From NCBI GenBank assembly GCA_964547425.1, contig CAZJNH010000006.1, forward strand, positions 6,095-70,094: a stretch of 64,000 bases of DNA, given 5' to 3'. The notes under the pieces were generated by a model. That model did not search any database and was not told the origin of the DNA. It saw only the letters and a list, made by a program, of their open reading frames with translations. The position numbers and the translations under genes were made by a program. The DNA is from an uncultured Candidatus Saccharibacteria bacterium (GTDB taxonomy: Bacteria > Patescibacteriota > Saccharimonadia > UBA4664 > CAZJNH01). Shown piece by piece: positions 33,097-61,454 of the stretch. The stretch's first letter is position 1; every line of letters begins with the position of its first letter.

Positions 33097-34653
33097 ATGA
33101 CTCAAGCGCAGGCGCTAGATGTAATGAAGTTGGGGCACAACGTTTTTCTAACCGGCGAGCCGGGTTCGGGCAAAACTTATACTCTCAATAAATTCATCGC
33201 TTTCTGCAAACGCGAAGGTATTGGTGTTGGCGTGACGGCCTCGACCGGCATTGCGGCGACCCACATCGGCGGCATGACCATCCATAGCTGGAGCGGGATA
33301 GCCGTTCATGACGAAATTAGCGACGCGCACTTGGAACGGCTGCAAAACCGCAAACAACTTCAGGCCCGGTTCAAAAAAACCCGGGTACTAATAATCGATG
33401 AGATCTCGATGCTCGACGGAGCCAGGCTGGGGATGATTAACCGCGTTTGCCAGGCAATGAAGCACAGCGACAAACCGTTTGGCGGGTTGCAGGTCATTTT
33501 GTGCGGCGATCTCTTCCAGCTGCCACCGGTTACGCGCGGCCAGCAAGACATCGACTTCGCGCACTTCTCCCCAGCCTGGAAGGACTTAAACCTCAAGGTC
33601 TGCTACCTCTCCGAGCAGCACCGGCAAGAGGAGGACGAATCGATGCTATCTCTGTTGCGCCAAATCCGCTCCGGCGAATTGAGCGACGATGCTATGAAGC
33701 TGCTGGAAGAACGGCTGGAACAAACCAATGAAGATGAGGATATTACTCGCCTTTACTCCCACAACGTCGACGTTGACTCATTAAACGCCAAGCGCTTAGC
33801 TCTAATCGAAGACGAATCAAAAATATTTCAAATGCAAACTCACGGCTCTGCTCATTTGGTGGAGCAGCTGCAAAAGAGCTGCTTGGCGCCGGAAAAATTA
33901 GAACTCAAAGTCGGTGCCCAGGTTTTATGTGTAGCCAACAACCCAGCCGAGGGTTATATGAACGGCACCCGCGCCGAAGTAATCGGCTTTGACGATGGCC
34001 AGCCGGTTATACGACTCGCGGGCGGTAAAAAAATCAAAATGACTCAAAAAACCTGGGCTATCGAAGACGGCGACCGCATATTGGCGGAGGTCGCACAATA
34101 TCCGCTGCGCCTCGCGTGGGCGATTACCGTGCACAAAAGCCAGGGTATGAGCCTCGACGCCGCCGAAGTCGACCTCTCCCGCGCCTTTACGCCCGGTATG
34201 GGTTATGTCGCGCTGTCTCGCTTGCGCCAACTCTCCGGCCTCTACCTTCGCGGCATCAATCAAATGGCTCTGCGGGTTAGCCCAGAAATTACCGAGTTCG
34301 ACGCCAGCCTACGCGCTCAGTCCACCAAAGTAGTCGACAGCTTGTCGGGCATAAATGAAAAAGAGCTGACACAAATGCATCAGCAAGTTAAAACTAATCT
34401 GGCCCAAGACTACGCCGAGTACGACAAAGCCCTCTTCGAAGACTTGCGCACCTGGCGCACGGACCAGGCCAAAAAACAGAAGTTACCAGCCTACATGATC
34501 CTGGACGATAAAACCTTAATCGCTTTAAGCGCCGAACGCCCCCAATCCGAAGCCGACATGCTGCTAGTTTCGGGAATCGGTCCCAAGAAACTAAAAGACT
34601 ACGGCAGCGACCTAATGCGACTCATCAACCAAAAATCCGGTAGACTGTTTTAG
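33097..34653 (+). CDS. SF1B DNA helicase (PIF1/RecD-like) with C-terminal helix-hairpin-helix/HRDC-like module
   Basis: 518 aa; Walker A GEPGSGKTY; PIF1/RecD-like motif order; C-terminal …LLVSGIGPKKLKDYG…. Confidence 0.7.
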   Translation: MTQAQALDVMKLGHNVFLTGEPGSGKTYTLNKFIAFCKREGIGVGVTASTGIAATHIGGMTIHSWSGIAVHDEISDAHLERLQNRKQLQARFKKTRVLIIDEISMLDGARLGMINRVCQAMKHSDKPFGGLQVILCGDLFQLPPVTRGQQDIDFAHFSPAWKDLNLKVCYLSEQHRQEEDESMLSLLRQIRSGELSDDAMKLLEERLEQTNEDEDITRLYSHNVDVDSLNAKRLALIEDESKIFQMQTHGSAHLVEQLQKSCLAPEKLELKVGAQVLCVANNPAEGYMNGTRAEVIGFDDGQPVIRLAGGKKIKMTQKTWAIEDGDRILAEVAQYPLRLAWAITVHKSQGMSLDAAEVDLSRAFTPGMGYVALSRLRQLSGLYLRGINQMALRVSPEITEFDASLRAQSTKVVDSLSGINEKELTQMHQQVKTNLAQDYAEYDKALFEDLRTWRTDQAKKQKLPAYMILDDKTLIALSAERPQSEADMLLVSGIGPKKLKDYGSDLMRLINQKSGRLF

Positions 34654-35322
34654 CTAACTGAGCGTGGCTGTTTTAAACTTGGCTCGGTAGATGCAATACC
34701 CGCAAGTGCTCGACTCAAGAGGTAACTCACCGCCCAGAACCTCAGATATTTCGTCAATGAAACCGTAGAATGCTGGCATATCAGCTATTACCTCGCGGAA
34801 AATCGGCTTTGACCTAAAGAATGCATATCCTTTGTGGTATCGAACATCTTGCGGTTGGATTACCAAAAGCCCCATCCTCGAAATCTGTTTAGGCTCGCCT
34901 ACCGCAGGATTCTCATGTGCAAATTTATAGGCGTGTAGCTGCCTGTCGTATTTAGCTAGACTTTCCGCGCTAGGATCGGTGATCTTCAAATCCAGTACGC
35001 CATACGTTCCGTCATCGAACTTAGTCAAAAGGTCGAATCTGCCATTTAGGTAGCAGTCTAGCTTGTTGGGTATTGGCTTTGATTTTAAAAAACCTTCTTG
35101 AGAGTCGAACTTCCCAGACGGCAATTCAGAAATTATGTCACTTAAATTGTGCTGCAAAGCCATCGTCTGGAGCTGACTGTTCATCTTCGTAAAGATTGAC
35201 GGGAAAGGCGTGCTTGGAGTGGTTAGGGCATTTACAACTTTCTGGTAGTAACAGTGTTTACAGTCTTCCCAGAGAAACTTAAAGTCCGACGGACTAAGCT
35301 TATATTTGGCTGGGCTATTCAT
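34654..35322 (-). CDS. PD-(D/E)XK-like nuclease with a split Cys4 (CxxC…CxxC) metal site
   Basis: 222 aa; …FDLLTKFDDGTYGVLDLKITD… (D…DLK); Cys pairs CKHC and CGYC; the stop abuts the helicase stop (TAGCTA). Confidence 0.4.
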   Translation of the reverse strand: MNSPAKYKLSPSDFKFLWEDCKHCYYQKVVNALTTPSTPFPSIFTKMNSQLQTMALQHNLSDIISELPSGKFDSQEGFLKSKPIPNKLDCYLNGRFDLLTKFDDGTYGVLDLKITDPSAESLAKYDRQLHAYKFAHENPAVGEPKQISRMGLLVIQPQDVRYHKGYAFFRSKPIFREVIADMPAFYGFIDEISEVLGGELPLESSTCGYCIYRAKFKTATLS

Positions 35323-35591
35323 AGTTTGAATTCATCCTTAAATTTCCTTGATCGAAACTTAGTCTTAACTTCTGTGATGCGTTTTTCTATCGTTGCGAAA
35401 ATCTTTTCAACGTCAGCCTCGTCGTAGCTGTATAGTGTTTTATTGCCGGTATTACCTAACAGTCTCAGGTCATTTAGAATCCTATTCGTACGTTTCTCGG
35501 CAACTCGAACAAAGCGCTCCCGTCTTGCTTGGGGTGTATAAAGCTCTTTTCGATCAATCTCTTCTTCACTCATAGAAGATATATACCACAC
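35319..35591 (-). CDS. Small charged helical protein
   Basis: 90 aa; ATGA overlap with the downstream nuclease-like gene. Confidence 0.4.
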   Translation of the reverse strand: MWYISSMSEEEIDRKELYTPQARRERFVRVAEKRTNRILNDLRLLGNTGNKTLYSYDEADVEKIFATIEKRITEVKTKFRSRKFKDEFKL

Positions 35592-35788
35592 TATCTATGT
35601 ATATACAACGGGCTGGATAGAGTTAGCTAAAATTGTAGTTCTTGACGTATAACTATTGACCAGTTTACAAACGGCGACTAGGATAAAAGTAAATCGCCGC
35701 ACGAGAATTTGAGCCTCAGATACGACGATTTACGCTGACGATTTTTTTCGTCTTCTCCATACTAACTAATTGCTCAAGGAGGGTAAAG

Positions 35789-35980
35789 ATGAGTGTTTTT
35801 TGGCTATACCGACGCGCCGATAGGGACATCGGCTGGAGACTCCGAGATGGCAACCAGAAAATAATTGCTATTTCCGGTGAAGGCTTCAAGACAGAGACCT
35901 CGGCGCGTAACTCAATCGCTAATGTGAAGCTTGAAGCACCTCGTGCCGAGATAAAAACTTCGGACAAGTCGCCTATTTAA
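35789..35980 (+). CDS. YegP-like (DUF1508/UPF0339) small protein
   Basis: 63 aa; FWLYRRADRDIGWRLRDGNQKIIAISGEGFKTETSARNSIANVK matches the YegP repeat pattern; AGGAGG RBS. Confidence 0.55.
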   Translation: MSVFWLYRRADRDIGWRLRDGNQKIIAISGEGFKTETSARNSIANVKLEAPRAEIKTSDKSPI

Positions 35981-36082
35981 CCGCAAGCAAGGATTACCAC
36001 TGACGGATTATGTCCTGAGACGGTTTTCTTAAATCTTGACGTTCGTATTTTGTTCTATTATGATAAGATAAGCATAAGATCC

Positions 36083-37030
36083 ATGAGGAGTAATATAGAT
36101 AATCAAATACTGTGCGAGGATTGTGTGGAAGGGCTGGCTACAATCCCTGCGAACTCAATTGACGGCTGTATTGCTGACCCTCCTTATAACTACGAGTTTA
36201 TTGGTCATAAATGGGATGCAGAAGAAATAAAAAGAAGGGCAGCTAAGGCCAAGGACTCTACTACCTTAGTTAAGAACATTCCGTACGGTAGCGGTCTGGC
36301 AGGTGGTGTACGGAATGAGAGGTGGTACCAAAAGAATGCCGAGAACATCAATGACTATAGGAAGTGGACTCGACAGTGGGGTGAACAGGTGTTAAGGGTG
36401 TTAAAACCTGGGGCATATATCCTGGTTTTTAATAGCTCCCGCACGATTGCACACGTTCAGGTTGCGCTCGAGGAAGCTGGCTTCTATGCCCGAGATACCC
36501 TCGTGTGGAGAAGGCATTCTGGAATACCTAAAGGCCTAAACTACGCTAAAAAAATAGCTAAGGAAGACGCCTCAAGAGCTAGAGGGTGGAATGGTTGGCA
36601 CAGCTGTTTACGCAATGAGTGGGAGGCTATAGCAATGCTTCAAAAGCCTCTGGAGAATAACTACATGGAAACCGTCAAGAAGTACGGGGTCGGTCTTCTT
36701 CACGCCGAGGACGCTTTTGGATTCAAGTCGAATATTTTCGAAGGAATTAAGCGAGACAAGAAGGATAGCTTTAATGTCCACTGCACGGTTAAGCCGGCTG
36801 ATTTAATTAAGCAGCTTATCGATCTTATTATTCCAGCCCATAAAGGCGCCATCGTACTGGATCCCTTTATGGGTTCGGGTACAACAGCAGTCGCGGCTAT
36901 AGAGAGCGGTATCTCCTACTTAGGGTATGAAATTAATCCTGAATATTGCGAAATCGCAAAAGAGCGTGTAAATAAGATGGCAGCAACGAGCTCACCTCTG
37001 AACCGTAAAGCTCCCCTTAAGCTTTTTTAG
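36083..37030 (+). CDS. DNA methyltransferase, amino-MTase beta class (N6-adenine or N4-cytosine)
   Basis: DPPY (motif IV) near the N-terminus and FMGSGTT (motif I) near the C-terminus; ORF track start 36050 is TTG, the first in-frame ATG is 36083; TTGACG-17-TATGAT promoter at 36036..36064. Confidence 0.8.
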   Translation: MRSNIDNQILCEDCVEGLATIPANSIDGCIADPPYNYEFIGHKWDAEEIKRRAAKAKDSTTLVKNIPYGSGLAGGVRNERWYQKNAENINDYRKWTRQWGEQVLRVLKPGAYILVFNSSRTIAHVQVALEEAGFYARDTLVWRRHSGIPKGLNYAKKIAKEDASRARGWNGWHSCLRNEWEAIAMLQKPLENNYMETVKKYGVGLLHAEDAFGFKSNIFEGIKRDKKDSFNVHCTVKPADLIKQLIDLIIPAHKGAIVLDPFMGSGTTAVAAIESGISYLGYEINPEYCEIAKERVNKMAATSSPLNRKAPLKLF

Positions 37031-37552
37031 ATATTGCTCTAAATCGAAGCTAGTTTTCTCTTTTATATAAGCAAAGGCGTCGGGTCCAACGTAAAGTGTC
37101 CAGCCACCAACACGACAAGCACCAAGTGCTGCGGGCAGATTATCTTCTCTTAAGATAAGTAATACGGGACGAAACCCCTGCCCCTTGAGCATTGCTCCGT
37201 ATTGTTTGAATTTCTTAAGCGTACCAGAATCCCCAGATCCTATACGGTACTTAGTGTCAATGGCATCTTTGCCTACGAACATATCGGTTGGTTCGTCTGC
37301 TTCTACTTTAATTGCCGGCAAATAATCTGCACACTTCAATTCGCACAACCTATCGATGAGTAATTGCCAGCACATACCTAGCTCTCTGCCCCAGTACTGC
37401 CTGTTCTCTCGTTTTATCTCAGGAGTTATATTGAAAATATCCATTAGCAAATCGTGGTCATTGTTTTCTTCGCCGTACGCTTTATCGGAAAATGATCCTG
37501 CATACTGGCTGATGATCTTCTTTAGCTCGATATCTAAATCTTGTTGTGTCAT
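36992..37552 (-). CDS. Putative Type II restriction endonuclease (PD-(D/E)XK-like)
   Basis: 186 aa from MTQQDL…; …EADEPTDMFVGKDAIDTKY… fits PD…D-x-K; convergent with the MTase and overlaps it by 39 nt. Confidence 0.45.
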   Translation of the reverse strand: MTQQDLDIELKKIISQYAGSFSDKAYGEENNDHDLLMDIFNITPEIKRENRQYWGRELGMCWQLLIDRLCELKCADYLPAIKVEADEPTDMFVGKDAIDTKYRIGSGDSGTLKKFKQYGAMLKGQGFRPVLLILREDNLPAALGACRVGGWTLYVGPDAFAYIKEKTSFDLEQYLKKLKGSFTVQR

Positions 37553-37569
37553 TTTTTGCACTTTTAGCA

Positions 37570-37596
37570 AAAAGCCCAGTTAAGGGCTTTTTGTGG
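37570..37596. terminator. Bidirectional intrinsic terminator after rpsJ
   Basis: AAAAAGCCC-agttaa-GGGCTTTTTG. Confidence 0.7.
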
Positions 37597-37947
37597 CTAC
37601 ATTATTGTCTTTATCTCAATATCCACACCCGCCGGGAGGTTTAGGGCCATTAGGGAGTCGATGGTTTTTTGGTTGAACTCGGTGACGTCGATCAAACGTT
37701 TGTGGGTGCGTTGCTCGAACTGCTCCCGGCTGTCTTTGTAGATGTGCGGGCTGCGCAATACCGTGAACTTCTGTTTCTCGGTGGGCAACGGAATCGGCCC
37801 GGCCACCTTGGAGCCATTGCGAATAGCGGTATCTAGAATCTGCTTGGCCGACTGGTCGATAATTTTGTTATCGTAGGCCTTCAGGCGGATCCTGATGCGC
37901 TGCTTGGGCTCTTCTTTGGTGGTTTCGGGCTTCTTATCTTCTGCCAT
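37597..37947 (-). CDS. rpsJ: 30S ribosomal protein uS10
   Basis: 116 aa; …[10 protein letters not shown]… S10 signature; follows tuf. Confidence 0.95.
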
Positions 37948-37982: not shown

Positions 37983-39158
37983 TTATTTGATGATCTTAGA
38001 GACTACGCCAGCTCCTACGGTTTTGCCGCCTTCGCGGATGGCGAAGCGTAGGCCGTCTTCCATAGCGATCGGGGAGATCAGTTTAACTTTAACCGATACG
38101 TTGTCTCCCGGCATAATCATTTCAGTTCCTTCTGGCAGTTCAACTTCGCCGGTGACGTCGGTGGTGCGAATGTAAAACTGGGGCTTGTAGCCTTTGAAGA
38201 ACGGGGTGTGGCGTCCGCCTTCATCCTTTTTCAGAACGTAGATTTCGCCTTCAAATTCGGTGTGAGGAGTAATCGAACCGGGCTTTGCAAGCACCTGGCC
38301 GCGCTCGATGTCGTCGCGCTCAACTCCGCGGAGCAGTACGCCAACGTTGTCGCCGGCTTGCGCGTCGGGGAGTAATTTGCGGAACATTTCTACACCGGTA
38401 ACGACGGTTTTCTTGGTGGCGCGAATACCAACGATTTCAACTTCGTCGTTAACGGCCACTTTGCCGCGCTCAATCCGGCCGGTGGCAACAGTACCACGAC
38501 CTTTGATCGAGAAAACGTCTTCGATCGGCATTAGAAAAGGCTTGTCGACGTCGCGGGTTGGCTCGGGCAGTTCATCTAGAGCCGCAACCAGTTCGTGGAT
38601 ACTCTTCTCATACTCGGCGTCGCCTTCAAGAGCCTTTAGGGCGGAACCCTTGATGATGGCGGCTTTGTCGCCGTCGTACTCGTATTTGGAGAGCAGTTCG
38701 CGAATTTCAACCTCAACCAGTTCGGCTAGTTCAGGGTCGGCCATGTCCATTTTGTTCATGAAAACTACGATGTGAGGCACACCAACCTGGCGGGCGAGGA
38801 GAATGTGCTCGCGAGTTTGGGGCATCGGGCCGTCGGCAGCCGAAACAACTAGGATAGCGGCGTCCATCTGGGCGGCGCCGGTAATCATGTTCTTAACGTA
38901 GTCGGCGTGGCCAGGGCAGTCGACGTGGGCGTAGTGGCGTTTGTCGGACTCGTACTCCTGGTGGGAGGTGGCAATAGTAATACCGCGGGCTTTTTCCTCC
39001 GGAGCCTTGTCGATTTCGGCGTAGCTGGTGGCTGTTGCCTGACCCGACTTGGCGAGTACCGTAGTAATAGCGGCGGTTAAGGTAGTTTTGCCGTGGTCGA
39101 CGTGACCAATGGTGCCTACGTTGATATGGGGTTTTGTGCGAGTGTATGTCTCGGCCAT
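37983..39158 (-). CDS. tuf: Elongation factor Tu
   Basis: 391 aa; [18 protein letters not shown] motifs. Confidence 0.97.
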
Positions 39159-39294
39159 GATGCTGGTTCTCTCCTAATAATTCGTTAGTATTTCGGGCAA
39201 ATTAAAAAACGGTCGCCCGTAATTAGACTTTAAGAATTATAAGCAAGGAGAGCCTATCTGTAAACCCTTTTAGCGCCAACTCGCCCCTCAATCA

Positions 39295-39351
39295 AGGTTC
39301 GACCCTATACAACCCAAGTAATTCACCTTGAGACGAAAAAGGGTCGAACCT
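39295..39351. repeat. 57-nt palindromic intergenic element, copy c (inverted orientation, compensatory stem variant)
   Basis: AGGTTCGACCCT…AGGGTCGAACCT; the stem differs from copies a and b by paired substitutions. Confidence 0.65.
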
Positions 39352-39361
39352 TATTCAAGCC

Positions 39362-39390
39362 TTGACAAAAGGCTTATGTTTGTGTATAGT
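39362..39390 (+). promoter_or_regulatory. Near-consensus promoter with extended -10
   Basis: TTGACA-17 nt-TATAGT preceded by TGTG; structured 97-nt leader with a CCAGTTC-gtat-GAACTGG hairpin; paralogous to 41156..41184. Confidence 0.6.
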
Positions 39391-39488
39391 TATTGCTCAA
39401 TTCCAGTTCGTATGAACTGGTGTCCGCCTAGGCGGAAACGGCGAAGATTCCGACGCCCATTCGGGATTGTTCAGAAAGGAGCAGTCGT

Positions 39489-39806
39489 ATGACTGCCGCA
39501 ACGCTTCGCAGCACGATGCCTCTTCGCAGAGGCCCGTGGAGCTACGCCATCGTCTCCGGCCCCTCTCGCGAGGAGCTGTTCGATGCCCTCCGTTTGAGCG
39601 AGGAGAACCGCAAGGTCAAACTCGTGATTACGTACTGCAAGCCGGGAGAGGTTGGCGCCGAAGTCGAGATCCTGGTCTACATCGACCAGATCGGGCGCGC
39701 CAACAACTTCGGATCGGCCTGGGTGTTCCATGCCACGCTCGGCGATCAACCGCTCATCGGGTCATACAACACCCAAAAGCGCCTCGGTACGATCGCACCG
39801 AGCTAG
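39489..39806 (+). CDS. Hypothetical protein (105 aa)
   Basis: AAGGAG RBS 7 nt upstream of ATG; followed by a terminator. Confidence 0.55.
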   Translation: MTAATLRSTMPLRRGPWSYAIVSGPSREELFDALRLSEENRKVKLVITYCKPGEVGAEVEILVYIDQIGRANNFGSAWVFHATLGDQPLIGSYNTQKRLGTIAPS

Positions 39807-39859
39807 AGCCCGCAACAAGCTTCAAAAGTTGGAGCCGCAGTTGCGGGCTCCTTCTTTTT
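39805..39859 (+). terminator. Intrinsic terminator (duplicated at 40277..40331)
   Basis: GAGCCCGCAAC…GTTGCGGGCTC followed by CTTCTTTTT. Confidence 0.65.
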
Positions 39860-39893
39860 GTACCTAGACAGCATCTGACAAGAGTTTTATAAT

Positions 39894-40250
39894 ATGCGGC
39901 AGCTTTTCGTTATTGTCTTGGCGAAAGGAGCACGAGTGAAACTCAAGCAGCACTTTGGGCAAACGGCGGTCGGTCTGATGTTGATCAGCATGACTGCCTG
40001 GATGGGTACCATCCTCCTGGCACTGGGTGTCGAAAAGGGTCACTTCGAACGTCAGGCAACGCTGCCGTACCTCCTCCTTTTCTTCGGTTTCGCGGTCATC
40101 ACCGAGATGGGGATGATCGCGGTCGAGTGCCAGGCAGGCGTTCACAACGTGATCGCCCGAAAGCACAACAAGAAGCTTCCGCCTTGGGAGCGGCCGGGCT
40201 GGCGTTGGTCAGCCAAGGACATCGACGAGTGGTACGCACAGTACCACTAG
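39894..40250 (+). CDS. Small membrane protein (2-3 TM)
   Basis: 118 aa; hydrophobic helices. Confidence 0.5.
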   Translation: MRQLFVIVLAKGARVKLKQHFGQTAVGLMLISMTAWMGTILLALGVEKGHFERQATLPYLLLFFGFAVITEMGMIAVECQAGVHNVIARKHNKKLPPWERPGWRWSAKDIDEWYAQYH

Positions 40251-40276
40251 AGCCTCTGTACGATCGCACCGAGCTA

Positions 40277-40331
40277 GAGCCCGCATCAAGCTTCAAAAGC
40301 TGGAGCCGCAGTTGCGGGCTCCTTCTTTTTA
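40277..40331 (+). terminator. Intrinsic terminator, second copy
   Basis: GAGCCCGCATC…GTTGCGGGCTC followed by CTTCTTTTT; about 78 nt including upstream flank duplicates 39783..39860. Confidence 0.65.
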
Positions 40332-40525
40332 CTTACGGCCGTCGAGGTATTTGGCGGCGAAGCTCAGGGCGAATGAAGGCAGAATAATGAAAACCGAGGC
40401 CATTACCAGTCGCGTGAAGATCGAATTATCGTCGTGATGGGGTCAGGTTATAACCATTATTAGCCCAAAAACCCCAAACGCGACCGAAGACCCTATAAAG
40501 ATTCTGGTCGCCAGCTTTTGCATGG

Positions 40526-40702
40526 TTATGGCTCCAATTCGGATAATTCTTTCAAATTCAGCAGTTTGTTCTTACTCATGAATTCAATCAAGGGTTTACC
40601 ACAATCCAGGCAAATATCATAGGCCCCAAAACCCACACCTAGGCTGATCGAGGCATCCCGTTTGATGGTCTTCTTGCAGATGTCACACTTGGTAACTGTC
40701 AT
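40526..40702 (-). CDS. Small zinc-ribbon protein (58 aa)
   Basis: Not in the ORF track; MTVTKCDICKKTIKRDASISLGVGFGAYDICLDCGKPLIEFMSKNKLLNLKELSELEP; AAGGAG RBS right after the stop of the upstream gene. Confidence 0.4.
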   Translation of the reverse strand: MTVTKCDICKKTIKRDASISLGVGFGAYDICLDCGKPLIEFMSKNKLLNLKELSELEP

Positions 40703-40712
40703 GAGTCTCCTT

Positions 40713-41051
40713 TCAATTTCTAATTTCTAGCTTTTTCTCGATGAACTTAATTCGCTTCTCATGGTCCCCGTAATCGTCGCTTGAGATCTTCAGCTTACTT
40801 TTTATGACGTTCAGGTTGCCGTCGATATTGTCGAATCGCTCGTCGACTTCAGTGAATCGCGAGTCAATCCTATCGAAACGCTGGTCTATCTCAGTAAATC
40901 TGGCGTCGATTTTGTCGAAACGCTCCTCGTGTTTCGCGTCATACTCCTCAAACGAATTATTTACCGCTGCAGCCAGACCTTCAATCTGCTTTTCAAGCGG
41001 ATCATGAACGACTTCCTTAATGGCTTGTAGGTCTTGGTTGGTCAGAGACAC
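40713..41051 (-). CDS. Tandem-repeat coiled-coil protein
   Basis: 112 aa; at least five 11-residue repeats (ERFDKIDARFTEIDQRFDRIDSRFTEVDERFDNID). Confidence 0.55.
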   Translation of the reverse strand: MSLTNQDLQAIKEVVHDPLEKQIEGLAAAVNNSFEEYDAKHEERFDKIDARFTEIDQRFDRIDSRFTEVDERFDNIDGNLNVIKSKLKISSDDYGDHEKRIKFIEKKLEIRN

Positions 41052-41155
41052 GTTTCCCTCGCTTTCGTATTAGTTTAGCCCGCCCGATGTCATAATTATA
41101 TCGAACAAGAAGCGAACAGGCAAGCCAGTCTAGTCACGGATCGACACGATTTGTC

Positions 41156-41184
41156 TTGACAAAACCCTTATGCTTTGGTATACT
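41156..41184 (+). promoter_or_regulatory. Near-consensus promoter, paralog of 39362..39390
   Basis: TTGACA-17 nt-TATACT; the leader has a CCAATC-aaca-GATTGG hairpin and the same GAAAGGAGCAG RBS block. Confidence 0.6.
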
Positions 41185-41258
41185 AGTGCGATCCAATCAA
41201 CAGATTGGCGTCCCAAGAAATTCAAATACCCTTGTTTCACGATCGAAAGGAGCAGCAA

Positions 41259-41558
41259 TTGCGCCAGCACAAGCTGATGCAAAACGGCGTTCAGATCGGC
41301 GGCGGCATGTCGGACGTTGCGATTGTGGCCTTCAATGGCCCTCTCAACTGGATCGACGTCCAGCCCGCCGACCGAGAGACCATCGGCAACGAGCACTTCG
41401 AAGGTGCCGGGGTCTTCATGCAGGTCGCCGACCGGCGCGTCTGGCTGGAGCCCGAGGACGTCAGAGTCCTCGTCGAAAACCTCCAGCGGGCGAACCACGA
41501 GTTCTTCCGCCGTTGGCGAGAAGCCGATCCTGACCTGTTTGAGGACGAGAGCGCCTAG
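41259..41558 (+). CDS. Hypothetical protein (start uncertain: TTG at 41259 or ATG at 41277)
   Basis: ORF track gives 41205..41558; AAGGAG lies 6 nt upstream of the in-frame TTG at 41259. Confidence 0.45.
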   Translation: MRQHKLMQNGVQIGGGMSDVAIVAFNGPLNWIDVQPADRETIGNEHFEGAGVFMQVADRRVWLEPEDVRVLVENLQRANHEFFRRWREADPDLFEDESA

Positions 41559-41623
41559 AGCGCGAAACAAGGGTGACGGCCTTGAGGCGCCTGCCTCGGC
41601 CTGAGGGGAGATGAACGCTCCCC

Positions 41624-41665
41624 TCCACCCTTAGGTTCTTGAGAAATCGAGAGCCTAAGGGTGGA
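41624..41665 (+). repeat. Conserved 3'-UTR stem-loop, copy 1
   Basis: TCCACCCTTAGG-TTCTTGAGAAATCGAGAG-CCTAAGGGTGGA; preceded by a GGGGAG…CTCCCC hairpin. Confidence 0.65.
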
Positions 41666-41716
41666 AAATCTCCACCGAAGTACCTTGATGAATCACTCTG
41701 AAGGGAGTGACGTTAG

Positions 41717-41932
41717 ATGCAAGAGCGCTTTGGCGCTCGCTGGACGCCTTTGATGATTCTCGTCAACCTGATCGTGGTTGCGGGTATCGTCGGCCTCCTC
41801 TGGTCCATCTTCGGCGCTGACGCGCTGGTCTGGTGGCAGAGATGGCTAATCGGCTACGTTTCTTTGGCGGTAGCCGGCGGCCTTAGCTGGCAAGTCACGG
41901 TCGAAGAACCGGAGAACCGGCAGAACGCCTAA
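41717..41932 (+). CDS. Small two-TM membrane protein
   Basis: 71 aa; GAAGGGAG RBS. Confidence 0.5.
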   Translation: MQERFGARWTPLMILVNLIVVAGIVGLLWSIFGADALVWWQRWLIGYVSLAVAGGLSWQVTVEEPENRQNA

Positions 41933-42069
41933 CGGCATCAAGGGAGCAAGCCCCGACAACGACGTCGGGGCCACCCTCAAGTTTTCACGAAGTTGAAAGT
42001 TTATGGGTGGATAATAATTCCATCGTTCTTTTAGTTTCAAATACCTTGTTGCACGAACAGGGAGGGCAT

Positions 42070-42654
42070 ATGTACCGAGGCAAAGTGGTGCACTACGACC
42101 GCCGGGAGCGAAGCAATTACGGCTTTCTCCAGGCGCAGATCGACGGTCGCCGCCAGAAGGTGTTCTTTCACTTCGGCCGCGGCTGCCAGGTTGGGCTGAG
42201 GATCGTAGACAAGAGCGCCTGCGAGGCGCCTCAGCTGGATTCGTACAGTCGGCCCTCTCGAGAGCCTCAGATCGGCGACGAGCTGGTTTTCTGGCCCGTC
42301 ACGCTCCGCAAAGGACCGGCGGCGGACAGCTGGTGTTACGCCGAGGAATGGGACGAGGCCGAGCAGATCGCCCGAGTCAACAGTCTCACCTTCCGCTACA
42401 TCGAGACTACACAACTCGAACGCCGGCCGGCCGACGAGCCAGTAGTTAAGTGGGAGGGCTACAACACCCTGTCACTACTCGACGAGGTGCTACCTGAGAT
42501 CCAGGTAGTCTTCGACTCGAACGGCGAGTTCGTGGTCGAAAAGACCAAGCTCTGCCTGACTACCGGTCACTTCGAGCGCAAAACCAGCAGTGGCTGGCAC
42601 ACCTGCCAGATCGACCCCAGGATGGTCACCGAAGATGCCGGCGCGACGGCCTAG
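42070..42654 (+). CDS. Protein with N-terminal cold-shock-domain-like OB fold plus C-terminal unknown domain
   Basis: 194 aa from the internal Met (GGGAGGG RBS); GKVVHYDRRERSNYGFLQAQIDGRRQKVFFHF resembles the CSD consensus G.V.WF…KGFGFI…DVFVHF. Confidence 0.5.
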   Translation: MYRGKVVHYDRRERSNYGFLQAQIDGRRQKVFFHFGRGCQVGLRIVDKSACEAPQLDSYSRPSREPQIGDELVFWPVTLRKGPAADSWCYAEEWDEAEQIARVNSLTFRYIETTQLERRPADEPVVKWEGYNTLSLLDEVLPEIQVVFDSNGEFVVEKTKLCLTTGHFERKTSSGWHTCQIDPRMVTEDAGATA

Positions 42655-42687
42655 CAACAAGGTGCCCCGAGCCAGTACGGTTCGGGG

Positions 42688-42728
42688 ACACCCTCAGGTT
42701 CTTGAGAAATCGAGAGCCTAAGGGTGGA
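42688..42728 (+). repeat. Conserved 3'-UTR stem-loop, copy 2
   Basis: Identical 18-nt loop TTCTTGAGAAATCGAGAG; stem has 1 mismatch; preceded by a GCCCCGA…TCGGGG hairpin and followed by a canonical terminator. Confidence 0.65.
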
Positions 42729-42740
42729 ACAATACCAAAA

Positions 42741-42765
42741 AGACCCCGAATTCGGGGTCTTTTTG
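42741..42765. terminator. Bidirectional intrinsic terminator
   Basis: AAAAAGACCCCGAA-TTCGGGGTCTTTTT. Confidence 0.8.
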
Positions 42766-42783
42766 GGTGAAGTGGTAAATGAA

Positions 42784-43179
42784 CTATACTCGGCGCCTCA
42801 TGATCGCATCGATTAGGGCAACTACGAGGAACGCGAGTATGCCATAAACAACCATCGCCACTGCCGTGGTGGTCTCGAACGAGCCGGGGCCGGTGTTAAG
42901 CTGAACTCCTACGGCTCCGAAAAACGGGCTAATAAGTGGACGCGTAACTTGGTAGATAAAAGACACAAAGCCATTTTGCGGATTGGCCGCGAAAAGCCGT
43001 AAAAGCAACCGGACCAATAGGACGGTTTCGACTACTCCGGCTACCCAGAGTAACAGCGAAGCCAGAAACGACATTTCATCAACCACCGCCGTCTCGACAA
43101 AGCTGGTTTGAGAAGCTGGAATTGCCTCGTGGAACTCCTCGTCCCGGCGTTCAATTATCCTTCTGTGACGTTTGTTCAT
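42784..43179 (-). CDS. YggT-family membrane protein
   Basis: …NPQNGFVSFIYQVTRPLISPF… matches the YggT motif; start trimmed to MNKRH (GGAGG RBS). Confidence 0.6.
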   Translation of the reverse strand: MNKRHRRIIERRDEEFHEAIPASQTSFVETAVVDEMSFLASLLLWVAGVVETVLLVRLLLRLFAANPQNGFVSFIYQVTRPLISPFFGAVGVQLNTGPGSFETTTAVAMVVYGILAFLVVALIDAIMRRRV

Positions 43180-43311
43180 ATCGCCTCCGCCTTTATTGCT
43201 CTGCGAGATTACCAGCACCACAATTTAAGATCTTTAGTTATAGTTCCAAACATCCGGCTAAGACTTGGTGTTTTGCCCAAATGAATAGGCGACCGCTGGC
43301 TTGCGGCCGCC

Positions 43312-43494
43312 CTATTGGGCAGCAAGGCCCTCTTCCATTAGTGTCCTGAACTCTTCGTGGCCTGCTTCGTACCGGAGCCTAACGAGCCTGCCAAGCAGTT
43401 CCTGGTCGGTTTCGACCGGTTCCAGCCAGCAACGCAATCGTTGCTGCAGACGTAGCTCCCGCTCGATCCTATCCCGATCCCTTTCGTGGTACAT
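43312..43494 (-). CDS. Hypothetical 60-aa charged protein
   Basis: Stop/start adjacency with the upstream gene; GGAAGAG RBS; hairpin downstream. Confidence 0.4.
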   Translation of the reverse strand: MYHERDRDRIERELRLQQRLRCWLEPVETDQELLGRLVRLRYEAGHEEFRTLMEEGLAAQ

Positions 43495-43682
43495 CAGAAC
43501 TCTTCCGAATAACTAGCGGCGATGATTCCGTCGAAGCTGGCCCTCTCTTCGAGGGTGAAATCTTCAACGTCATCGTCGTCCCAGTCCAAGCCGGAATCAG
43601 AAACGCTCCTGAACGACTGAACAACGGCCAAGACGATGAAGGCAACTACAGAGGCAACTCCGAGTAACAAGAGTAGAACCAT
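43494..43682 (-). CDS. Small membrane-anchored acidic protein
   Basis: 62 aa from MVLLLLLGVASVV…; AGGAGGAGG RBS; the ORF track's longer N-terminus overlaps the upstream gene. Confidence 0.5.
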   Translation of the reverse strand: MVLLLLLGVASVVAFIVLAVVQSFRSVSDSGLDWDDDDVEDFTLEERASFDGIIAASYSEEF

Positions 43683-43743
43683 TGCCTGCCTCCTCCTGTC
43701 CTCGACTGCTTCGGTCAATTTGATTGTAACAGTTATGTTTGGC

Positions 43744-45029: not shown

Positions 45030-45215
45030 TTAACGCCTTTGTAGTACGTGGTACTCGGTCGTAGTACCAGGCTCGTCGTTGGTCTTGGCGCGTAGCTTTT
45101 CGACTCTACGATCAGCCCGTTTCTCAGACCAGTGCCGGCTTTTGGCCTGCAAACTGTCGGGCCGGTGTCCCTTTTTGCCCCAAACGATCACGACTATCTG
45201 CCACTTGCGCCTCAT
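45030..45215 (-). CDS. Hypothetical basic 61-aa protein
   Basis: 4-nt overlap with the upstream gene. Confidence 0.4.
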   Translation of the reverse strand: MRRKWQIVVIVWGKKGHRPDSLQAKSRHWSEKRADRRVEKLRAKTNDEPGTTTEYHVLQRR

Positions 45216-45547
45216 ACCGCCGCCTTTTTGCTGAACGCGCCCGGTTCGATGAGTTCGAAGAACGCCATCAACCGGTACATCAGCTCGTCGAACGCCGGTC
45301 CTGGATTACGGACCAGCATCGTCTCGTGCACGATCACCCAGCGCAGCCGCGACTCCCGCAGCTCGTCCATTGTGATCGGGTGCGGCCAGATGTCTTGCCG
45401 CTGCAGCGTCCGAATGGCGCCGCCCAGCGTCCAGCAGCTGATTAGCAGCCGGATCTGCCCCTCCGGACCGGTTATGGCAATGTGCCATCGGCGAAAAACC
45501 GGGCCGGTAAACGCACTCATCAACTGCTCGTAGCGGTTGGCCTTCAA
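45212..45547 (-). CDS. Hypothetical protein (111 aa)
   Basis: ORF with downstream coupling. Confidence 0.4.
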   Translation of the reverse strand: MKANRYEQLMSAFTGPVFRRWHIAITGPEGQIRLLISCWTLGGAIRTLQRQDIWPHPITMDELRESRLRWVIVHETMLVRNPGPAFDELMYRLMAFFELIEPGAFSKKAAV

Positions 45548-45664: not shown

Positions 45665-47758
45665 TTATCGGCCTTCGGCGCGGGCGGCGGTGTATTTGCC
45701 GGAGATTTCGTCGGCGACGTTCTGCGGGACGGCGTCGTAGTGGTCAAATTCCATGGTGTTGCTTGCACGACCCTGGGTCATGGAACGAAGAGTTGTGGTA
45801 TAGCCAAACATTTCACCCAGCGGCACGAACGCGTCCACGACTTTGGCGCCGGCACGGTCCTCCATTTTGTCAATCCGGCCACGCTTGGCGTTGAGGTCGC
45901 CAATAACGTCACCCATAAACTCTTCGGGGGTCACAACTTCGACTTTCATAATTGGCTCAAGAATCACCGGACTGGCTTTGCGCACGCCTTCTTGAAGTGC
46001 CATCGAGCCGGCAATCTTGAAGGCCATTTCACTCGAGTCAACTTCGTGGAAGGAGCCGTCGTATAACTTCACCTTCATGTCGACCACCGGATAGCCGGCG
46101 ATAACACCGTTGTTCATCGCTTCTTTGACGCCCTCTTCGACCGGCTTAATGTACTCGCGAGGAATAGCGCCGCCGACGATGGCATTTTCGAACTCAAAGC
46201 CTTCGCCCGGCTCCTGCGGGGAGATCTCAATAAAGACATGGCCGTACTGGCCTCGGCCGCCGGATTGGCGAATGTATTTGCCTTCTTGCTGGACGGTTTT
46301 GCGAATGGTTTCGCGGTAGGCCACTTGAGGCTTACCGACGTTGGCTTCGACTTTAAACTCGCGCTTCATCCGGTCGACGATAATGTCGAGGTGTAGCTCG
46401 CCCATACCGGAGATGATGGTTTGGCCCGTTTCCTGGTTGGAGCTAATGCGGAAGGTTGGGTCTTCTTCACCCAAACGCTGCAAGGCGACACCCATTTTCT
46501 CCTGGTCGGCCTTGGTTTTCGGCTCGATGGCGACGGAGATAACCGGCTCGGGGAAGGTGATGGATTCCAAAATAATCGGGTGGTCTGGGTCACACAGCGT
46601 ATGGCCGGTGAAGGTGGATTTTAGGCCTACGGCGGCGGCGATATCTCCAGCGTAAACTTCACTAACTTCCTCGCGGGAGTTGGCGTGGAGCCGGACGATC
46701 CGGCCAATACGCTCTTTTTCGCCGGTGGATGAGTTCAAAACATAGGACCCAGACTTCATGGTACCGGAGTAGACGCGGAAGAAGGCTAGCTTGCCGACGA
46801 ACGGGTCGGCGGCGATTTTGAAGGCCAGCGCGCTAAACGGCTCCTCGTCCGAAGGTTTGCGGGTAATTTCGTCACCCGTCTTGGGATCAGTCCCAATCAT
46901 CGGCGGCACGTCGAGCGGGCTCGGCAAATAAGCGTTCACAGCGTCTAGTAATTGCTGGACACCTTTGTTTTTGAGCGCGGAGCCGTTTAAGACCGGATAA
47001 AGTTGGTTGGAGATCACGGCTTTGCGTAGCGCGGTGGTCAGCTCGTCTTCAGAGATCTCGCCGCCTTCGAGGAACTTCTCGGTCAAAGCCTCGTCGGTTT
47101 CAGCGATTCTCTCAATCATCGTGGCGCGGTATTCGTCGGCTTTGGCTTTCATATCGTCAGGAATCGGTTCGGAGGCGAACTCCTTGCCCATTTCATCTTT
47201 ATAAACGACAGCTTCCATTTTGATCAGGTCGATGATGCCTTTGTAGCTGGCTTCGGCGCCGATCGGCAACTGAATCGCCACGGCGTTTTTGTTGAGCCGG
47301 TCGTGGATACTTTTGAGGTCGGCGTAAAAGTCGGCTCCGGTACGGTCCATTTTGTTTACAAAACAGATGCGGGGAACATGGTATTTGTCGGCCTGGCGCC
47401 AAACGGTCTCGGATTGGGGCTCAACTCCGGCGACGCCGTCAAATACGGTTACGCCGCCATCTAGCACGCGCAATGAGCGCTCTACCTCAACTGTAAAGTC
47501 GACGTGGCCAGGCGTGTCGATAATGTTGATCCGGTGGTCTTTCCAGAAGCAAGTCGTGGCGGCGGAGGTAATGGTGATGCCGCGTTCTTGCTCCTGTTCC
47601 ATCCAGTCCATCGTGGCTTCTCCCTCGTGGACTTCGCCGATTTTGTGGGTTTTGCCGGTGTAATACAAAACCCGCTCGGTAACTGTAGTTTTACCGGCGT
47701 CGATATGGGCGATGATCCCGATGTTTCGGGTTTTTTCGAGCGAATATTCCCTTGCCAC
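45665..47758 (-). CDS. fusA: Elongation factor G (GTG start)
   Basis: 697 aa; [18 protein letters not shown] motifs. Confidence 0.97.
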
Positions 47759-50152: not shown

Positions 50153-50281
50153 AGCATTAGCATAACAGATTAGAAAATATTATTTGACTCAATTTTTCTC
50201 GACTAGAAATTATTTTGACTCAAATTATAGTTAAGTTATCCACAGGTTTTTCTCCGAGAAAACCGAAAGGAGCAAATTGAC

Positions 50282-50560
50282 ATGATATATCAGATCTTCC
50301 GCAATTTCGTGGCAGCGGTCAGCGATAACCCGAAACTGACGGAGCGAGAGCTGATAGCCGCCGGGCTGAAAGATGTCGAAAACGCAATCGATTATTACCG
50401 GATCGGTTCGGCTTCGGGAGCCATATCTGGACCGTACCACCATCTCATCGATCAAGCGATCGAATGGGGCGCTATTGCCTGGGACCAGGAAAAAAATTGC
50501 TGGGTAAAAGGTGGGTTTGCGGGTACTTGGCTATCTAAACCAGCCAAGGAGGCGAATTGA
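50282..50560 (+). CDS. Hypothetical small protein (92 aa)
   Basis: AAGGAG RBS; first of three tightly packed plus-strand genes. Confidence 0.5.
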   Translation: MIYQIFRNFVAAVSDNPKLTERELIAAGLKDVENAIDYYRIGSASGAISGPYHHLIDQAIEWGAIAWDQEKNCWVKGGFAGTWLSKPAKEAN

Positions 50561-50561
50561 C

Positions 50562-50828
50562 GTGGAGGCACATGTACTTTTGTTTGGGCCTGTCTACGAT
50601 GAGCACGGGAGACTATACAACTGCCCTGGATTCTTCCGGGCATGGTGTAGCTGCGGTTGGCGGCCAAAGCTAACCCACCGAATTGCTGGACAGGCTTATG
50701 GACTCCGGGGTCACGCAGAAGCAGAGTTCCGAGAAAACCATCTGCCGGGTCTTGCGTGGAAGCAGCCGCAGGACCTAAGTAAAGACTTTCGGTGTGAAGT
50801 ACCAGCCGGAATAGGTTGCTGGAACTAG
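50562..50828 (+). CDS. Hypothetical Cys-rich small protein (GTG start)
   Basis: AAGGAGG 9 nt upstream of GTG; CPGFFRAWCSCGW…CEVPAGIGC. Confidence 0.4.
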   Translation: MEAHVLLFGPVYDEHGRLYNCPGFFRAWCSCGWRPKLTHRIAGQAYGLRGHAEAEFRENHLPGLAWKQPQDLSKDFRCEVPAGIGCWN

Positions 50829-50836
50829 GGGGCGCG

Positions 50837-51418: not shown

Positions 51419-51434
51419 CCTGGTACCAAAAAAA

Positions 51435-51472
51435 AGCCCGGGGAATACACCCCCGGGCTTTTCCCTTTTTTT
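51435..51472. terminator. Bidirectional intrinsic terminator
   Basis: AAAAAAAAGCCCGGGG-aatacac-CCCCGGGCTTTTCCCTTTTTTT. Confidence 0.8.
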
Positions 51473-60900: not shown

Positions 60901-61454
60901 GGAAGTTTGCGTTTGCGATCGATTTTTACCGACATAACACCGGCCGAGCTGGTCTCAAGCTCCAGCCAGGCGCCACGGCTCGGTATAACTTTGGCGCCAA
61001 ACAAGTCAACACCACTAGTGCCGTCGACGGTAAAGAATACCCCCGGTGAGCGGACTAATTGAGAAACAACTACGCGCTCAACACCGTTAATAATGAAGGT
61101 TCCGCGCTCGGTCATCCAGGGGTAGTCGCCGAGGAAAACCTCCTGCTTTTTGACTTCGCCGGTTTCTTTGATGATTAATTCAACCTTGGCCTTGAGCGGC
61201 GCCTCATAAGAGGCGTTACGGTCTTTGGCGGTTTGCTGATCGTACTTTGGTTCCTCAAAATGAAAATCTTTGAACGCCAAAGCCAGGTTCTTGCCGGTGA
61301 AATCTTCGATCGGTGAGATTTCGGCAAAAAGCTCGGTTAGGCCCTCGGTGATGAACCACTCGTAGGATTTAGTTTGGATCTCGGTCAGATTGGGCAGCGG
61401 CAACGCTTCGGATGCCGTCCCAAAAAACTTACGCTCGGCCGCGAATTTGGGCAA
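57969..61454 (-). CDS. rpoB: DNA-directed RNA polymerase beta subunit (TTG start)
   Basis: 1161 aa; conserved beta regions. Confidence 0.97.

Follow-up and report, generated by a model that had tools for sequence, protein, structure and literature searches.

The stretch of DNA analysed here, 64 kb long and referred to below as the window, comes from a Saccharimonadia (TM7) genome and carries an islet of small genes in the 6.5-kb gap between fusA and tuf. Our analysis shows that the segment from 39.24 to 42.73 kb is a lineage-specific insertion between a yggT-like gene (gene H) and tuf, that its gene content turns over, and that a small set of non-coding modules recurs around unrelated open reading frames (ORFs). 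In addition, three consecutive genes of the islet (E, F and G) have flanks that are complementary to one another in a cistron-specific manner, and a stem-loop found after each of them (hp2) is structurally constrained on the sense strand. As to what these modules do, the best reading, to which we give an even chance, is that they are RNA punctuation and stability elements which, together with closure of cistrons through their untranslated regions (UTRs) at the 5′ and 3′ ends, lie inside a hotspot of gene turnover.

A gene-turnover islet upstream of tuf

The islet is delimited by the following features:

37983-39158, − strand, tuf
39236-39264, − strand, tuf promoter TTTACA-17-TATAAT, left edge of the islet
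39294-39352, 13-bp perfect inverted repeat with a 33-nt loop, between the divergent tuf promoter and the first islet promoter (P_A)
42735-42766, perfect 14-bp bidirectional terminator, common to the putative E-F-G operon and convergent gene H
42784-43179, gene H, yggT-like, convergent to the putative E-F-G operon
45665-47758, − strand, fusA

The closest tuf homologues carry the labels Saccharimonadia, Saccharimonadales and Candidatus Saccharibacteria, and fusA is at most 72% identical to that of any GTDB representative genome, with no close relative retrieved that way; the source is therefore a poorly sampled lineage of TM7 and the candidate phyla radiation (CPR). Two relatives with 88% and 85% tuf identity (L094 and L086, respectively) have no islet, and in both a homologue of H, 42-44% identical to it, lies directly upstream of tuf on the same strand. 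In the window, 3.6 kb of opposite-strand genes part H from tuf. Since H directly adjoins tuf in these more distant relatives, the 39.24-42.73 kb segment is an insertion into the H-tuf spacer, and for the same reason we take the terminator at 42735-42766 to be ancestral DNA.

In three closer relatives (L082, L084 and L096; tuf identity 92-93%), this position is likewise occupied by an islet on the strand opposite tuf, with other ORFs. That of L082, readable only to the contig end, holds four small membrane ORFs; that of L084, whose contig ends at the −35 box of a promoter resembling the one ahead of gene E, holds a 147-amino-acid ORF and homologues of genes C and D; and that of L096 holds an ORF differing from those of the window, L082 and L084. 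Homology with L082 and L084 stops at 39241, and a 631-nt segment (39242-39872) is missing from L082. More remote Saccharimonadia likewise have variable small genes between fusA and tuf. A preliminary description of the locus had counted on conservation of the small ORFs, which was not borne out: none of A, B, E, F and G has a counterpart in the three closest relatives' islets, gene E had no homologue in a word-indexed search of 5.8 × 10⁹ proteins, and C and D are the only islet proteins kept in a relative (L084; 56% and 63% identity, respectively). Compared across these genomes, the locus is an islet of gene turnover, not a conserved regulon.

Small genes of foreign composition

The islet encodes the following proteins (GC3, G+C content at third codon positions):

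39489-39806, + strand, gene A, 105 amino acids, soluble, coding score 0.43, GC3 0.79
39936-40250, + strand, gene B, 104 amino acids, two transmembrane-like segments, GC3 0.78
40526-40702, − strand, gene C, 58 amino acids, four Cys in two CxxC motifs
40713-41051, − strand, gene D, coiled coil, 14-amino-acid repeat
41259-41558, + strand, gene E, 99 amino acids, acidic, coding score 0.86 (best in the islet), GC3 0.83
41717-41932, + strand, gene F, 71-amino-acid membrane protein, GC3 0.75
42070-42654, + strand, gene G, 194 amino acids, N-terminal cold-shock domain family, C-terminal extension of ~130 amino acids

The + strand ORFs of the islet are coding and compositionally foreign. Scored with a codon model that had been trained on 16 of the window's core genes, A, B, E, F and G reach 0.43-0.86 log-odds per codon in frame, compared with 0.65 for rpsJ, and the off-frames are negative. 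Their GC3 is 0.75-0.83, compared with 0.59-0.69 in core genes and 0.54-0.55 in C and D, and all five are singletons in 90% clustering. Neither A nor B matched Pfam or PHROG, and the PHROG matches that were found, to coiled-coil families for D and one marginal match for gene E (E-value 6 × 10⁻⁴), are functionally uninformative. ARAGORN detected no tRNA- or tmRNA-like element.

Both small membrane proteins of the preliminary description are present, with two transmembrane-like segments in B and at least one in F. The Cys4 zinc-ribbon peptide it listed is gene C, which does have the four cysteines, while as a zinc ribbon it gave only sub-threshold matches to Pfam zinc fingers. The tandem repeat, given there as 11 residues long, is the repeat of D, with a period of 42 nt or 14 residues made up of two heptads (RFDxIDx). 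This heptad-repeat region (40820-40929) spans 2.6 copies of the 42-nt period, and its length varies between relatives, with 112 amino acids here and 91 in L084 (94-369).

Promoters, leaders and terminators as recurrent modules

The modules upstream and downstream of the + strand genes are as follows:

39362-39390, + strand, promoter P_A, TTGACA-17-TATAGT, 11/12 consensus positions
39403-39420, + strand, leader hairpin of gene A, CCAGTTC/GAACTGG, −8.9 kcal/mol
39773-39859, + strand, 87-nt repeat copy 1, last 11 codons of A and an intrinsic terminator
39865-39893, + strand, promoter P_B (gene B), TAGACA-17-TATAAT, 11/12 consensus positions
40244-40330, + strand, 87-nt repeat copy 2, remnant of the gene A 3′ end and a terminator, serving gene B
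41156-41184, + strand, promoter P_E (putative E-F-G operon), TTGACA-17-TATACT, 11/12 consensus positions
41193-41208, + strand, 5′-terminal leader hairpin of P_E, CCAATC-aaca-GATTGG, −5.7 kcal/mol

P_A and P_E, the two near-consensus promoters noticed originally, are indeed paralogous, sharing a 28-nt block with 82% identity; the count has to be raised, since P_B, at 39865, is a third promoter of the same quality. Iso-structural leader hairpins are present behind both P_A and P_E, ~2-6 nt from the predicted transcript starts. The hairpin at 39403-39420 is the first of a 98-nt structured leader of gene A (z = −3.2), and in L082 a promoter homologous to P_E is followed by its leader hairpin in the form CCAATCA-agg-TGATTGG. 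The ribosome-binding-site (RBS) block GAAAGGAGCA, also recognised earlier, has four occurrences in the window, all + strand, preceding A, B, E and a gene at 50282; we take eight of its bases to be the full Shine-Dalgarno (SD) complement of the 16S rRNA 3′ end.

Duplication of a terminator with its flank was likewise borne out, in the form of an 87-nt direct repeat (39773-39859 and 40244-40330) with 93% identity between copies. In copy 1 the terminator reads GAGCCCGCAAC...GTTGCGGGCTC followed by a T-run. An origin of genes A and B by tandem duplication was considered and rejected, as their common part is the 87-nt 3′ module only. A GC-rich hairpin followed by a U-tract, as in an intrinsic terminator, is found at 39806-39859, 40277-40330 and 42735-42766. 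We found nothing resembling a + strand promoter from 41184 to 42735. Given this lack of an internal promoter and the perfect terminator at 42735-42766, E, F and G would most simply form one operon, running from the promoter at 41156 to that terminator.

Paralogous non-coding modules thus wrap unrelated ORFs, as the preliminary description had proposed for the duplicated regulatory modules around the small proteins, and they recur round different ORFs in the relatives as well. The core of P_B, ATCTGRCAAGAGTTTTATA, is kept in L082 and L096, where different genes follow; a 24-mer is identical between these two, with complete divergence right after TATACTACCTT. The terminator foot GGGCTCCTTCTTTTTAC recurs in the islets of relatives. 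The same holds for the P_E promoter with its CCAAT...ATTGG hairpin and for a stem-loop series, hp1-hp2-hp3, that is followed by GTACC|TT.

Stem-loop clusters after stop codons

Each of E, F and G is followed by a cluster of stem-loops:

41578-41676, + strand, cluster 1: hp0 41578-41601, hp1 41605-41623, hp2 41625-41664, hp3 41660-41676
41950-42024, + strand, cluster 2: hp1 41950-41971, hp2 41971-42010, hp3 42006-42024, then GTTCTTTT
42665-42734, + strand, cluster 3: hp1 42665-42687, hp2 42688-42727, no hp3, then GAACAATACC; right edge of the islet

These were first described as recurring twin stem-loops. Their recurrence, in three copies, stands; "twin" does not, as the unit has more than two hairpins. 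Its order is a GC-rich hp1, hp2 and a small 6-bp hp3 that overlaps the foot of hp2, with an extra hp0 after E. We found hp3 only where another cistron follows, and hp1 has the same shape in all clusters with unrelated sequences. The hp2 motif CCACCCT...GGGTGG occurs at 41625, 41971 and 42688 (none expected by chance) and nowhere else in the 64 kb; copies 1 and 3 are 98% identical, and copy 2 is divergent with compensatory changes. What had been taken for an identical 18-nt loop makes up the upper half of hp2 and is largely stem: its bases pair (UUCUUGA/UCGAGAG, with G:U), giving a stem of 18-19 bp with a GAAA tetraloop (18 bp in cluster 1). A T-run follows neither hp1 nor hp2 in any cluster, and they do not qualify as intrinsic terminators. 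In L082, gene 3 has an hp1-hp2-hp3 cluster downstream, and then GTACC|TT, an SD and the next gene.

Structural constraint on the stem-loops was confirmed by covariation. The four hp2 copies available, three paralogues from the window and one copy from L082, have 91.7% of cells paired, with three double compensatory and five one-sided, pairing-preserving changes; when partners were slid by 1-3 columns as a control, pairing dropped to 29-56%. The predicted folding energies of the four copies, sense vs antisense, are −32.2/−23.1 (cluster 1), −14.9/−14.2, −26.4/−20.9 and −24.7/−21.1 kcal/mol, and the sense strand is also the more stable one for hp1 of cluster 3. Such predicted strand asymmetry speaks for a structure in RNA, or in top-strand DNA, rather than for a symmetric DNA site.

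The element appears to be narrowly distributed. A covariance model of hp2 (R1) found no further copies in the window or in 19 further loci, and exact and degenerate patterns had no match in public genome, viral and metagenome contig collections; five matches to a relaxed pattern in metagenomes lacked the complementary arm and were dismissed as chance. Rfam gave no gathering-score match in the window and nothing usable at E ≤ 5 on 39150-43300, the best sub-threshold match being sraL (24.8 of 39 bits) over the terminator. Domain 5 of group II introns, suggested by the GAAA loop, was rejected, as there is no bulge or AGC triad and the L082 loop is not GNRA. By inspection we also rejected an element of the IS200/IS605 type (one hairpin per junction, no left-end/right-end pairs, hairpin-junction distance of 9-35 nt) and Xer/pdif modules (flanking repeats of 8-11 bp, not 28-bp dif-like sites).

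On the − strand of the F-G spacer (42011-42040) there is a promoter-like TTGAAA-18-TATTAT with 10/12 matches, which may be due to chance in this AT-rich DNA. An antisense RNA starting there would cover hp2, hp1 and the 3′ end of gene F, a layout that recalls the type I toxin-antitoxin arrangement.

Complementary boxes at the ends of cistrons

E, F and G are each flanked by a perfect inverted repeat of their own (11, 8 and 10 nt, respectively). Its upstream half, the 5′ box, lies immediately before the SD and 17-21 nt ahead of the start codon; its downstream half, the 3′ box, follows the stop codon at 0-8 nt:

41228-41238, + strand, E 5′ box ACCCTTGTTTC, perfect complement of 41564-41574
41564-41574, + strand, E 3′ box GAAACAAGGGT
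41680-41690, + strand, F junction GTACC|TT and 5′ box CCTTGATG (41683-41690)
41936-41943, + strand, F 3′ box CATCAAGG
42041-42052, + strand, G junction ATACC|TT and 5′ box ACCTTGTTGC (42043-42052)
42654-42663, + strand, G 3′ box GCAACAAGGT, overlapping the last base of the stop codon
39804-39815, 40275-40286, 41564-41572, 41935-41943 and 42654-42662, + strand, G[CA]A[AT]CAAG sites

The three pairs differ from one another at three positions, changed on both sides, and cross-pairs among them reach at most 7 nt. In random 50 × 30-nt windows, complementarity of at least 8, 10 and 11 nt has probabilities of 0.019, 7.5 × 10⁻⁴ and 5 × 10⁻⁴, respectively. The 3′ boxes belong to a wider pattern: G[CA]A[AT]CAAG is found 0-8 nt past the stop codon in 5/5 + strand islet genes, with ~0.005 expected in those windows. 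In A and B the motif forms the outer terminator stem, and in E, F and G it pairs with the 5′ box.

The 5′ boxes also have local partners. That of E can pair with the SD at 41245-41252, and that of G can form an SD-masking hairpin (CCUUGUU/AACAGGG). For E, F and G in turn, the long-range duplexes are predicted at −22.4, −13.3 and −17.7 kcal/mol vs −5.1, −11.7 and −8.1 kcal/mol for the local SD-masking hairpins, and with each cistron folded alone the closing helix has a probability of at least 0.96.

Two similar sequences lie outside the E-F-G region. ATCAAGG, the 3′-box motif, precedes the 13-bp inverted repeat at 39294-39352, inside the 631-nt segment missing from L082. In L086 (85% tuf identity), the sequence that makes up junction and 5′ box in cistron G reappears as AAATACCTTGTG at ~610-645, on the strand opposite tuf and within the tuf 5′ UTR, where it adjoins the start codon; it may be a coincidence or a remnant.

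Gene G and the cold-shock domain

The N-terminus of G had been likened to a cold-shock domain (CSD), a resemblance that holds for the family and not for G alone, which scores below the PF00313 gathering threshold (residues 13-35, 12.2 bits, E = 0.17, cut-off 27). By BLASTP, G matched CspA at E = 0.035; phmmer against the PDB gave no match, and a word-indexed protein search returned only the query itself. Exhaustive HMMER searching retrieved 56 remote relatives, with a full-length match of G to P0128 (3 × 10⁻¹⁸). PF00313 is matched individually by 34/38 family members (best E = 1.6 × 10⁻¹¹), and the family profile matches the CspB structure 5jx4 at E = 1.6 × 10⁻¹⁰. The family alignment has the consensus GxVKFFDxRxxKRFGFI....FFHFNDG, followed in the C-terminal region by the conserved motifs PxxGD..VF...KGPKA.PW and W..C.DPR. 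A single-sequence AlphaFold2 model of G had a pLDDT of 31, and its N-terminal strands are merely suggestive of an OB fold at that confidence. Judged from these sequence comparisons, G is a divergent CSD protein whose C-terminal ~130 amino acids are uncharacterised.

Possible function of the modules

We propose that the islet is a set of mini expression units, in which conserved non-coding modules would serve unrelated, compositionally foreign small ORFs. The 5′ modules would comprise a near-consensus sigma-70 promoter, a 5′-terminal stem-loop acting as a stabiliser and a UACCUU(G) box ~15-20 nt ahead of a strong SD, and the 3′ modules a G[CA]A[AT]CAAG box close behind the stop codon and, beyond it, an intrinsic terminator or an hp1-hp2-hp3 cluster. 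The clusters would act as sense-strand RNA structures that punctuate E-F-G: hp1 as a barrier to 3′ exonucleases for the upstream cistron, the 18-19 bp duplex of hp2 as a candidate processing site of the RNase III type (double-strand-specific), and hp3 as the 5′ hairpin of the downstream cistron. The size of hp2, about two helical turns with 0-3 mismatches per copy, would fit an RNase III substrate. Each cistron may be closed by its own 8-11 bp helix between 5′ and 3′ box, which would compete with SD masking by the 5′ box in a weaker local hairpin; through this competition, the complete, closed cistron would be the stable and translatable form.

Several observations weigh against this proposal. 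When the whole 1.6-kb operon is folded, probabilities fall to 0.13, 0.01 and 0.01 for the three closing helices. A and B have a 3′ box with no 5′ partner, and gene 3 of L082, the sole orthologous cistron visible, shows no obvious 5′/3′ box pair by inspection. The covariation counts are small, coming from four hp2 copies in two genomes, three of them paralogous. The outer arm of hp2, CCTAAGGGTGGAA, is identical in two genomes with otherwise diverged non-coding DNA, and this suggests sequence-specific recognition, for which a pure exonuclease barrier would have no need. That E, F and G form an operon is a prediction, and so are the processing of its RNA, the stabilisation of mRNA and the SD switch. 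Finally, the RTACC|TT junctions and the cassette-like replacement of ORFs fit a DNA-level mechanism equally well.

Such a mechanism would make each unit (TT...SD-ORF-3′ box-hp1-hp2-hp3-RTACC) a mobile gene cassette. The segment from the 3′ box to the next 5′ box would then be a folded attC-like site, cut at RTACC|TT, and a recombinase encoded elsewhere would capture foreign genes behind fixed promoters, as in an integron or a cluster of attC sites without integron-integrases (CALIN) with a non-canonical site. We consider this fairly unlikely, and distinctly unlikely in its stronger form, a non-canonical integron-like gene-capture platform in Saccharibacteria (CPR) that uses the ~120-nt folded element as a recombination site with an RTACC|TT core. 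It would account for ORFs that are small, co-oriented, compositionally foreign and different between close relatives, and for the structured element of ~115-125 nt (3′ box to next 5′ box) after each of E, F and G; three same-strand, structured palindromic sites lie within 4 kb, each after a co-oriented ORF, where a CALIN needs at least two. The start of each unit is complementary to its own 3′ box (11, 8 and 10 nt), as would be expected of a circular cassette, and the promoter ahead of the first unit recalls integrons with their Pc/attI logic (PMC4889954). RTACC|(C)TT stands at every unit boundary (41226, 41680 and 42041), ATACC|AAAAAG at the right islet edge (42730-42740) and GTACC at the end of the A unit (39860), and the breakpoint at which the L082 and L096 promoters, identical up to TATACTACCTT, diverge completely is at TACCTT. 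The 87-nt direct repeat round a promoter and B, moreover, resembles the product of a single-crossover integration. However, TACCTT is common (33 on the + strand vs ~20 expected) and is equally readable as an anti-SD box. A regex scan for mutually complementary boxes 55-145 nt apart found no RYYYAAC...GTTRRRY pair in the islet, which led us to reject the canonical attC consensus; candidate boxes have 2-4 mismatches (R″) and 1-2 (R′), and F is without AAC/GTT triplets. Inspection revealed no unpaired spacer or extrahelical-base geometry, with box pairing continuing into CCTT/AAGG, and the E-to-F site closes with only 5 bp in the array context. It is the sense (top) strand that folds better, opposite to the attC bias, attC sites acting through the bottom strand. 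No tyrosine recombinase (Phage_integrase) was detected among the scanned ORFs of the 64-kb window; a nearby IntI integrase is needed for a complete integron, and not for a CALIN. We found no literature linking attC sites or integrons to this lineage, integrons and Patescibacteria being co-mentioned merely in resistome surveys. The RNA and cassette readings are compatible, as conserved RNA modules could serve as recombination anchors too.

Three further explanations were weighed. The stem-loops could be selfish or neutral repeats, that is, palindromes resembling repetitive extragenic palindromes (REP) or miniature inverted-repeat transposable elements (MITE), or leftovers of local duplication, with at most incidental protection of transcript ends. 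The 98% identity of hp2 copies 1 and 3 would fit a recent duplication, the terminator module is clearly duplicated, and Logan short-read contigs of the locus (SRR9179562 and SRR9179560) break off in the repeated modules or next to them, at hp2 copy 1 and close to P_E. Yet the dispersal typical of REP, bacterial interspersed mosaic elements (BIME) and MITE is not seen, the 64 kb containing only three hp2 copies, which belong to one putative operon and each follow a stop codon at an equivalent position; divergent and orthologous hp2 copies keep their pairing by compensatory changes, the structure of hp1 is kept with unrelated sequence, and cistron-specific flank complementarity requires selection or a cassette origin. 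We therefore regard neutral repeats as improbable. An attenuator of the terminator/antiterminator type or a pause site, with hp2 and hp3 setting read-through into F and G, is very improbable. These two hairpins do share bases and are mutually exclusive at the foot, and hp3 of cluster 2 is followed by GTTCTTTT, flagged as terminator-like; however, no U-tract follows hp3 in cluster 1 or in L082, hp2 (−15 to −32 kcal/mol) would always out-compete hp3 (−4 to −6 kcal/mol), and we found neither ligand-binding nor leader-peptide features. The preliminary description had favoured a post-transcriptionally controlled locus for cold or envelope stress; in this model G would control the small proteins by binding or melting the structured leaders and the twin stem-loops. 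G does belong to a CSD-containing family, the RNAs are structured and constrained, and the P_E leader hairpin contains CCAAT/ATTGG, the classical Y-box motif bound by CSD proteins, which L082 has as well. The CSD protein aside, nothing supports such a locus: gene content differs even among relatives with 92-93% tuf identity and therefore does not make up a regulon, G itself is a weak CSD match, hp2 (−26 to −32 kcal/mol) is far too stable for an RNA thermometer, which we rejected on this ground, and no stress gene, sigma or anti-sigma factor, thermosensor-like element or Rfam match was found. We give the stress locus a low probability, and binding of the stem-loops by G is pure speculation.

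Other features of the window

The window covers the ribosomal-protein, rpoBC and str-operon region, with core genes on the − strand:

start coordinate 37597, − strand, rpsJ
54166-61454, − strand, rpoB/rpoC
str-operon region, − strand, rpsL/rpsG

A second + strand islet, of genes without a Pfam match, lies at 50160-51470 with a NUDIX gene on one side and an ABC-F gene on the other. Its promoter-like boxes (TTGACTCAA) are duplicated, and it shares the GAAAGGAGCA SD block; a leader hairpin (GGTTTTTCTCCGAGAAAACC) and a terminator with an A-tract are also present. Positions 50561-50836 have a non-coding score, and the last ORF (50837-51418) is flanked by GAAGTACCAG and CTGGTACC, which have a 7-nt complement and are placed like the boxes of E, F and G.

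A block of low G+C content at 34650-37600 (0.43-0.45 vs ~0.53) encodes a PD-(D/E)XK nuclease, an N6/N4 DNA methylase and a 192-amino-acid ORF of no known kind; it is probably a restriction-modification island that parts rpsJ from further − strand ribosomal-protein genes. Two secreted-type proteins (20063-21439 and 22625-23971) combine a Tectonin domain with a cell-wall hydrolase, CHAP in one and an M23 peptidase in the other, and are candidate host-interaction or lysis enzymes of an epibiont. Next to fusA, an unannotated ORF of 111 amino acids (45212-45547, − strand) has a GC3 of 0.81, like the + strand islet genes, and no Pfam or PHROG match; it may be another foreign insertion.

Comparison with known systems

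Saccharibacteria are epibionts with reduced genomes, in which the acquisition and expression of accessory genes are poorly understood. A fixed promoter-UTR-terminator scaffold that exchanges foreign ORFs beside tuf would amount to compact, modular gene capture. The hp2 element is narrowly distributed, having been seen in two genomes so far, and its general impact is limited accordingly. If the reading as RNA punctuation is true, it would add a new structured RNA element missing from Rfam; if the cassette reading is true, it would add a new kind of cassette recombination site, with a new architecture, in a lineage not known for cassettes.

Like CspA, CspB and other CSD proteins (PF00313), the G family has the N-terminal pattern GxVKFFxxxxxFGFI...FFHF; G differs from them in its length of ~194 amino acids, its C-terminal region and its sub-threshold Pfam score.

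Stem-loops between cistrons or at 3′ ends that act as stabilisers or RNase III sites are exemplified by the REP/BIME of E. coli malE-malF and by the intercistronic sites of phage T7. The islet is similar to these in having stable hairpins right after stop codons inside an operon, with no U-tract, and a pair of arms of 18-19 bp for a double-strand-specific RNase that would leave a hairpin at the new ends. In contrast to them, its hairpins are not dispersed genome-wide and keep a fixed hp1-hp2-hp3 order, the foot of hp2 is conserved in sequence across genomes, and the cluster is coupled to 5′ and 3′ boxes.

Phage morons and flexible genomic islets form another comparison class. Units A and B resemble morons, each being a single gene with its own promoter and intrinsic terminator between resident genes; the islet differs by the lack of a phage context, as its PHROG matches are limited to those of D and E described above.

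Integron gene cassettes, attC sites and CALIN (PMC4889954) share with the islet an array of small, co-oriented, unrelated ORFs without recognisable function, a folded imperfect palindrome of ~115-125 nt per ORF with complementarity of a unit's own ends, an upstream promoter, and ORF content that is replaced between relatives. The islet departs from them in lacking the R-box/spacer/L-box geometry, the RYYYAAC/GTTRRRY consensus and an integrase among the scanned ORFs of the window, in having a top strand that folds better and a highly conserved site interior, and in belonging to a lineage not reported with integrons.

The closest parallels for the proposed closure of cistrons are two bacterial mRNAs. 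In Bacillus subtilis hbs, a 14-bp interaction between 5′ and 3′ UTR protects from RNase Y (PMC5737220), and in Staphylococcus aureus icaR, an anti-RBS motif in the 3′ UTR is associated with RNase III cleavage (PMC7821165). As in these, a short perfect helix (8-11 bp here) would link two sites in one cistron, the first just ahead of the RBS and the second just past the stop codon, and an interplay with RBS accessibility and ribonucleases is predicted. The islet differs in that the arrangement is serial, over three consecutive unrelated cistrons with a cognate sequence each, and the RNA reading would thus extend regulation of the hbs/icaR type to a serial, operon-wide design. Moreover, whereas the 3′ motif of icaR masks the RBS, the 3′ box of the islet resembles an SD and is predicted to free the RBS.

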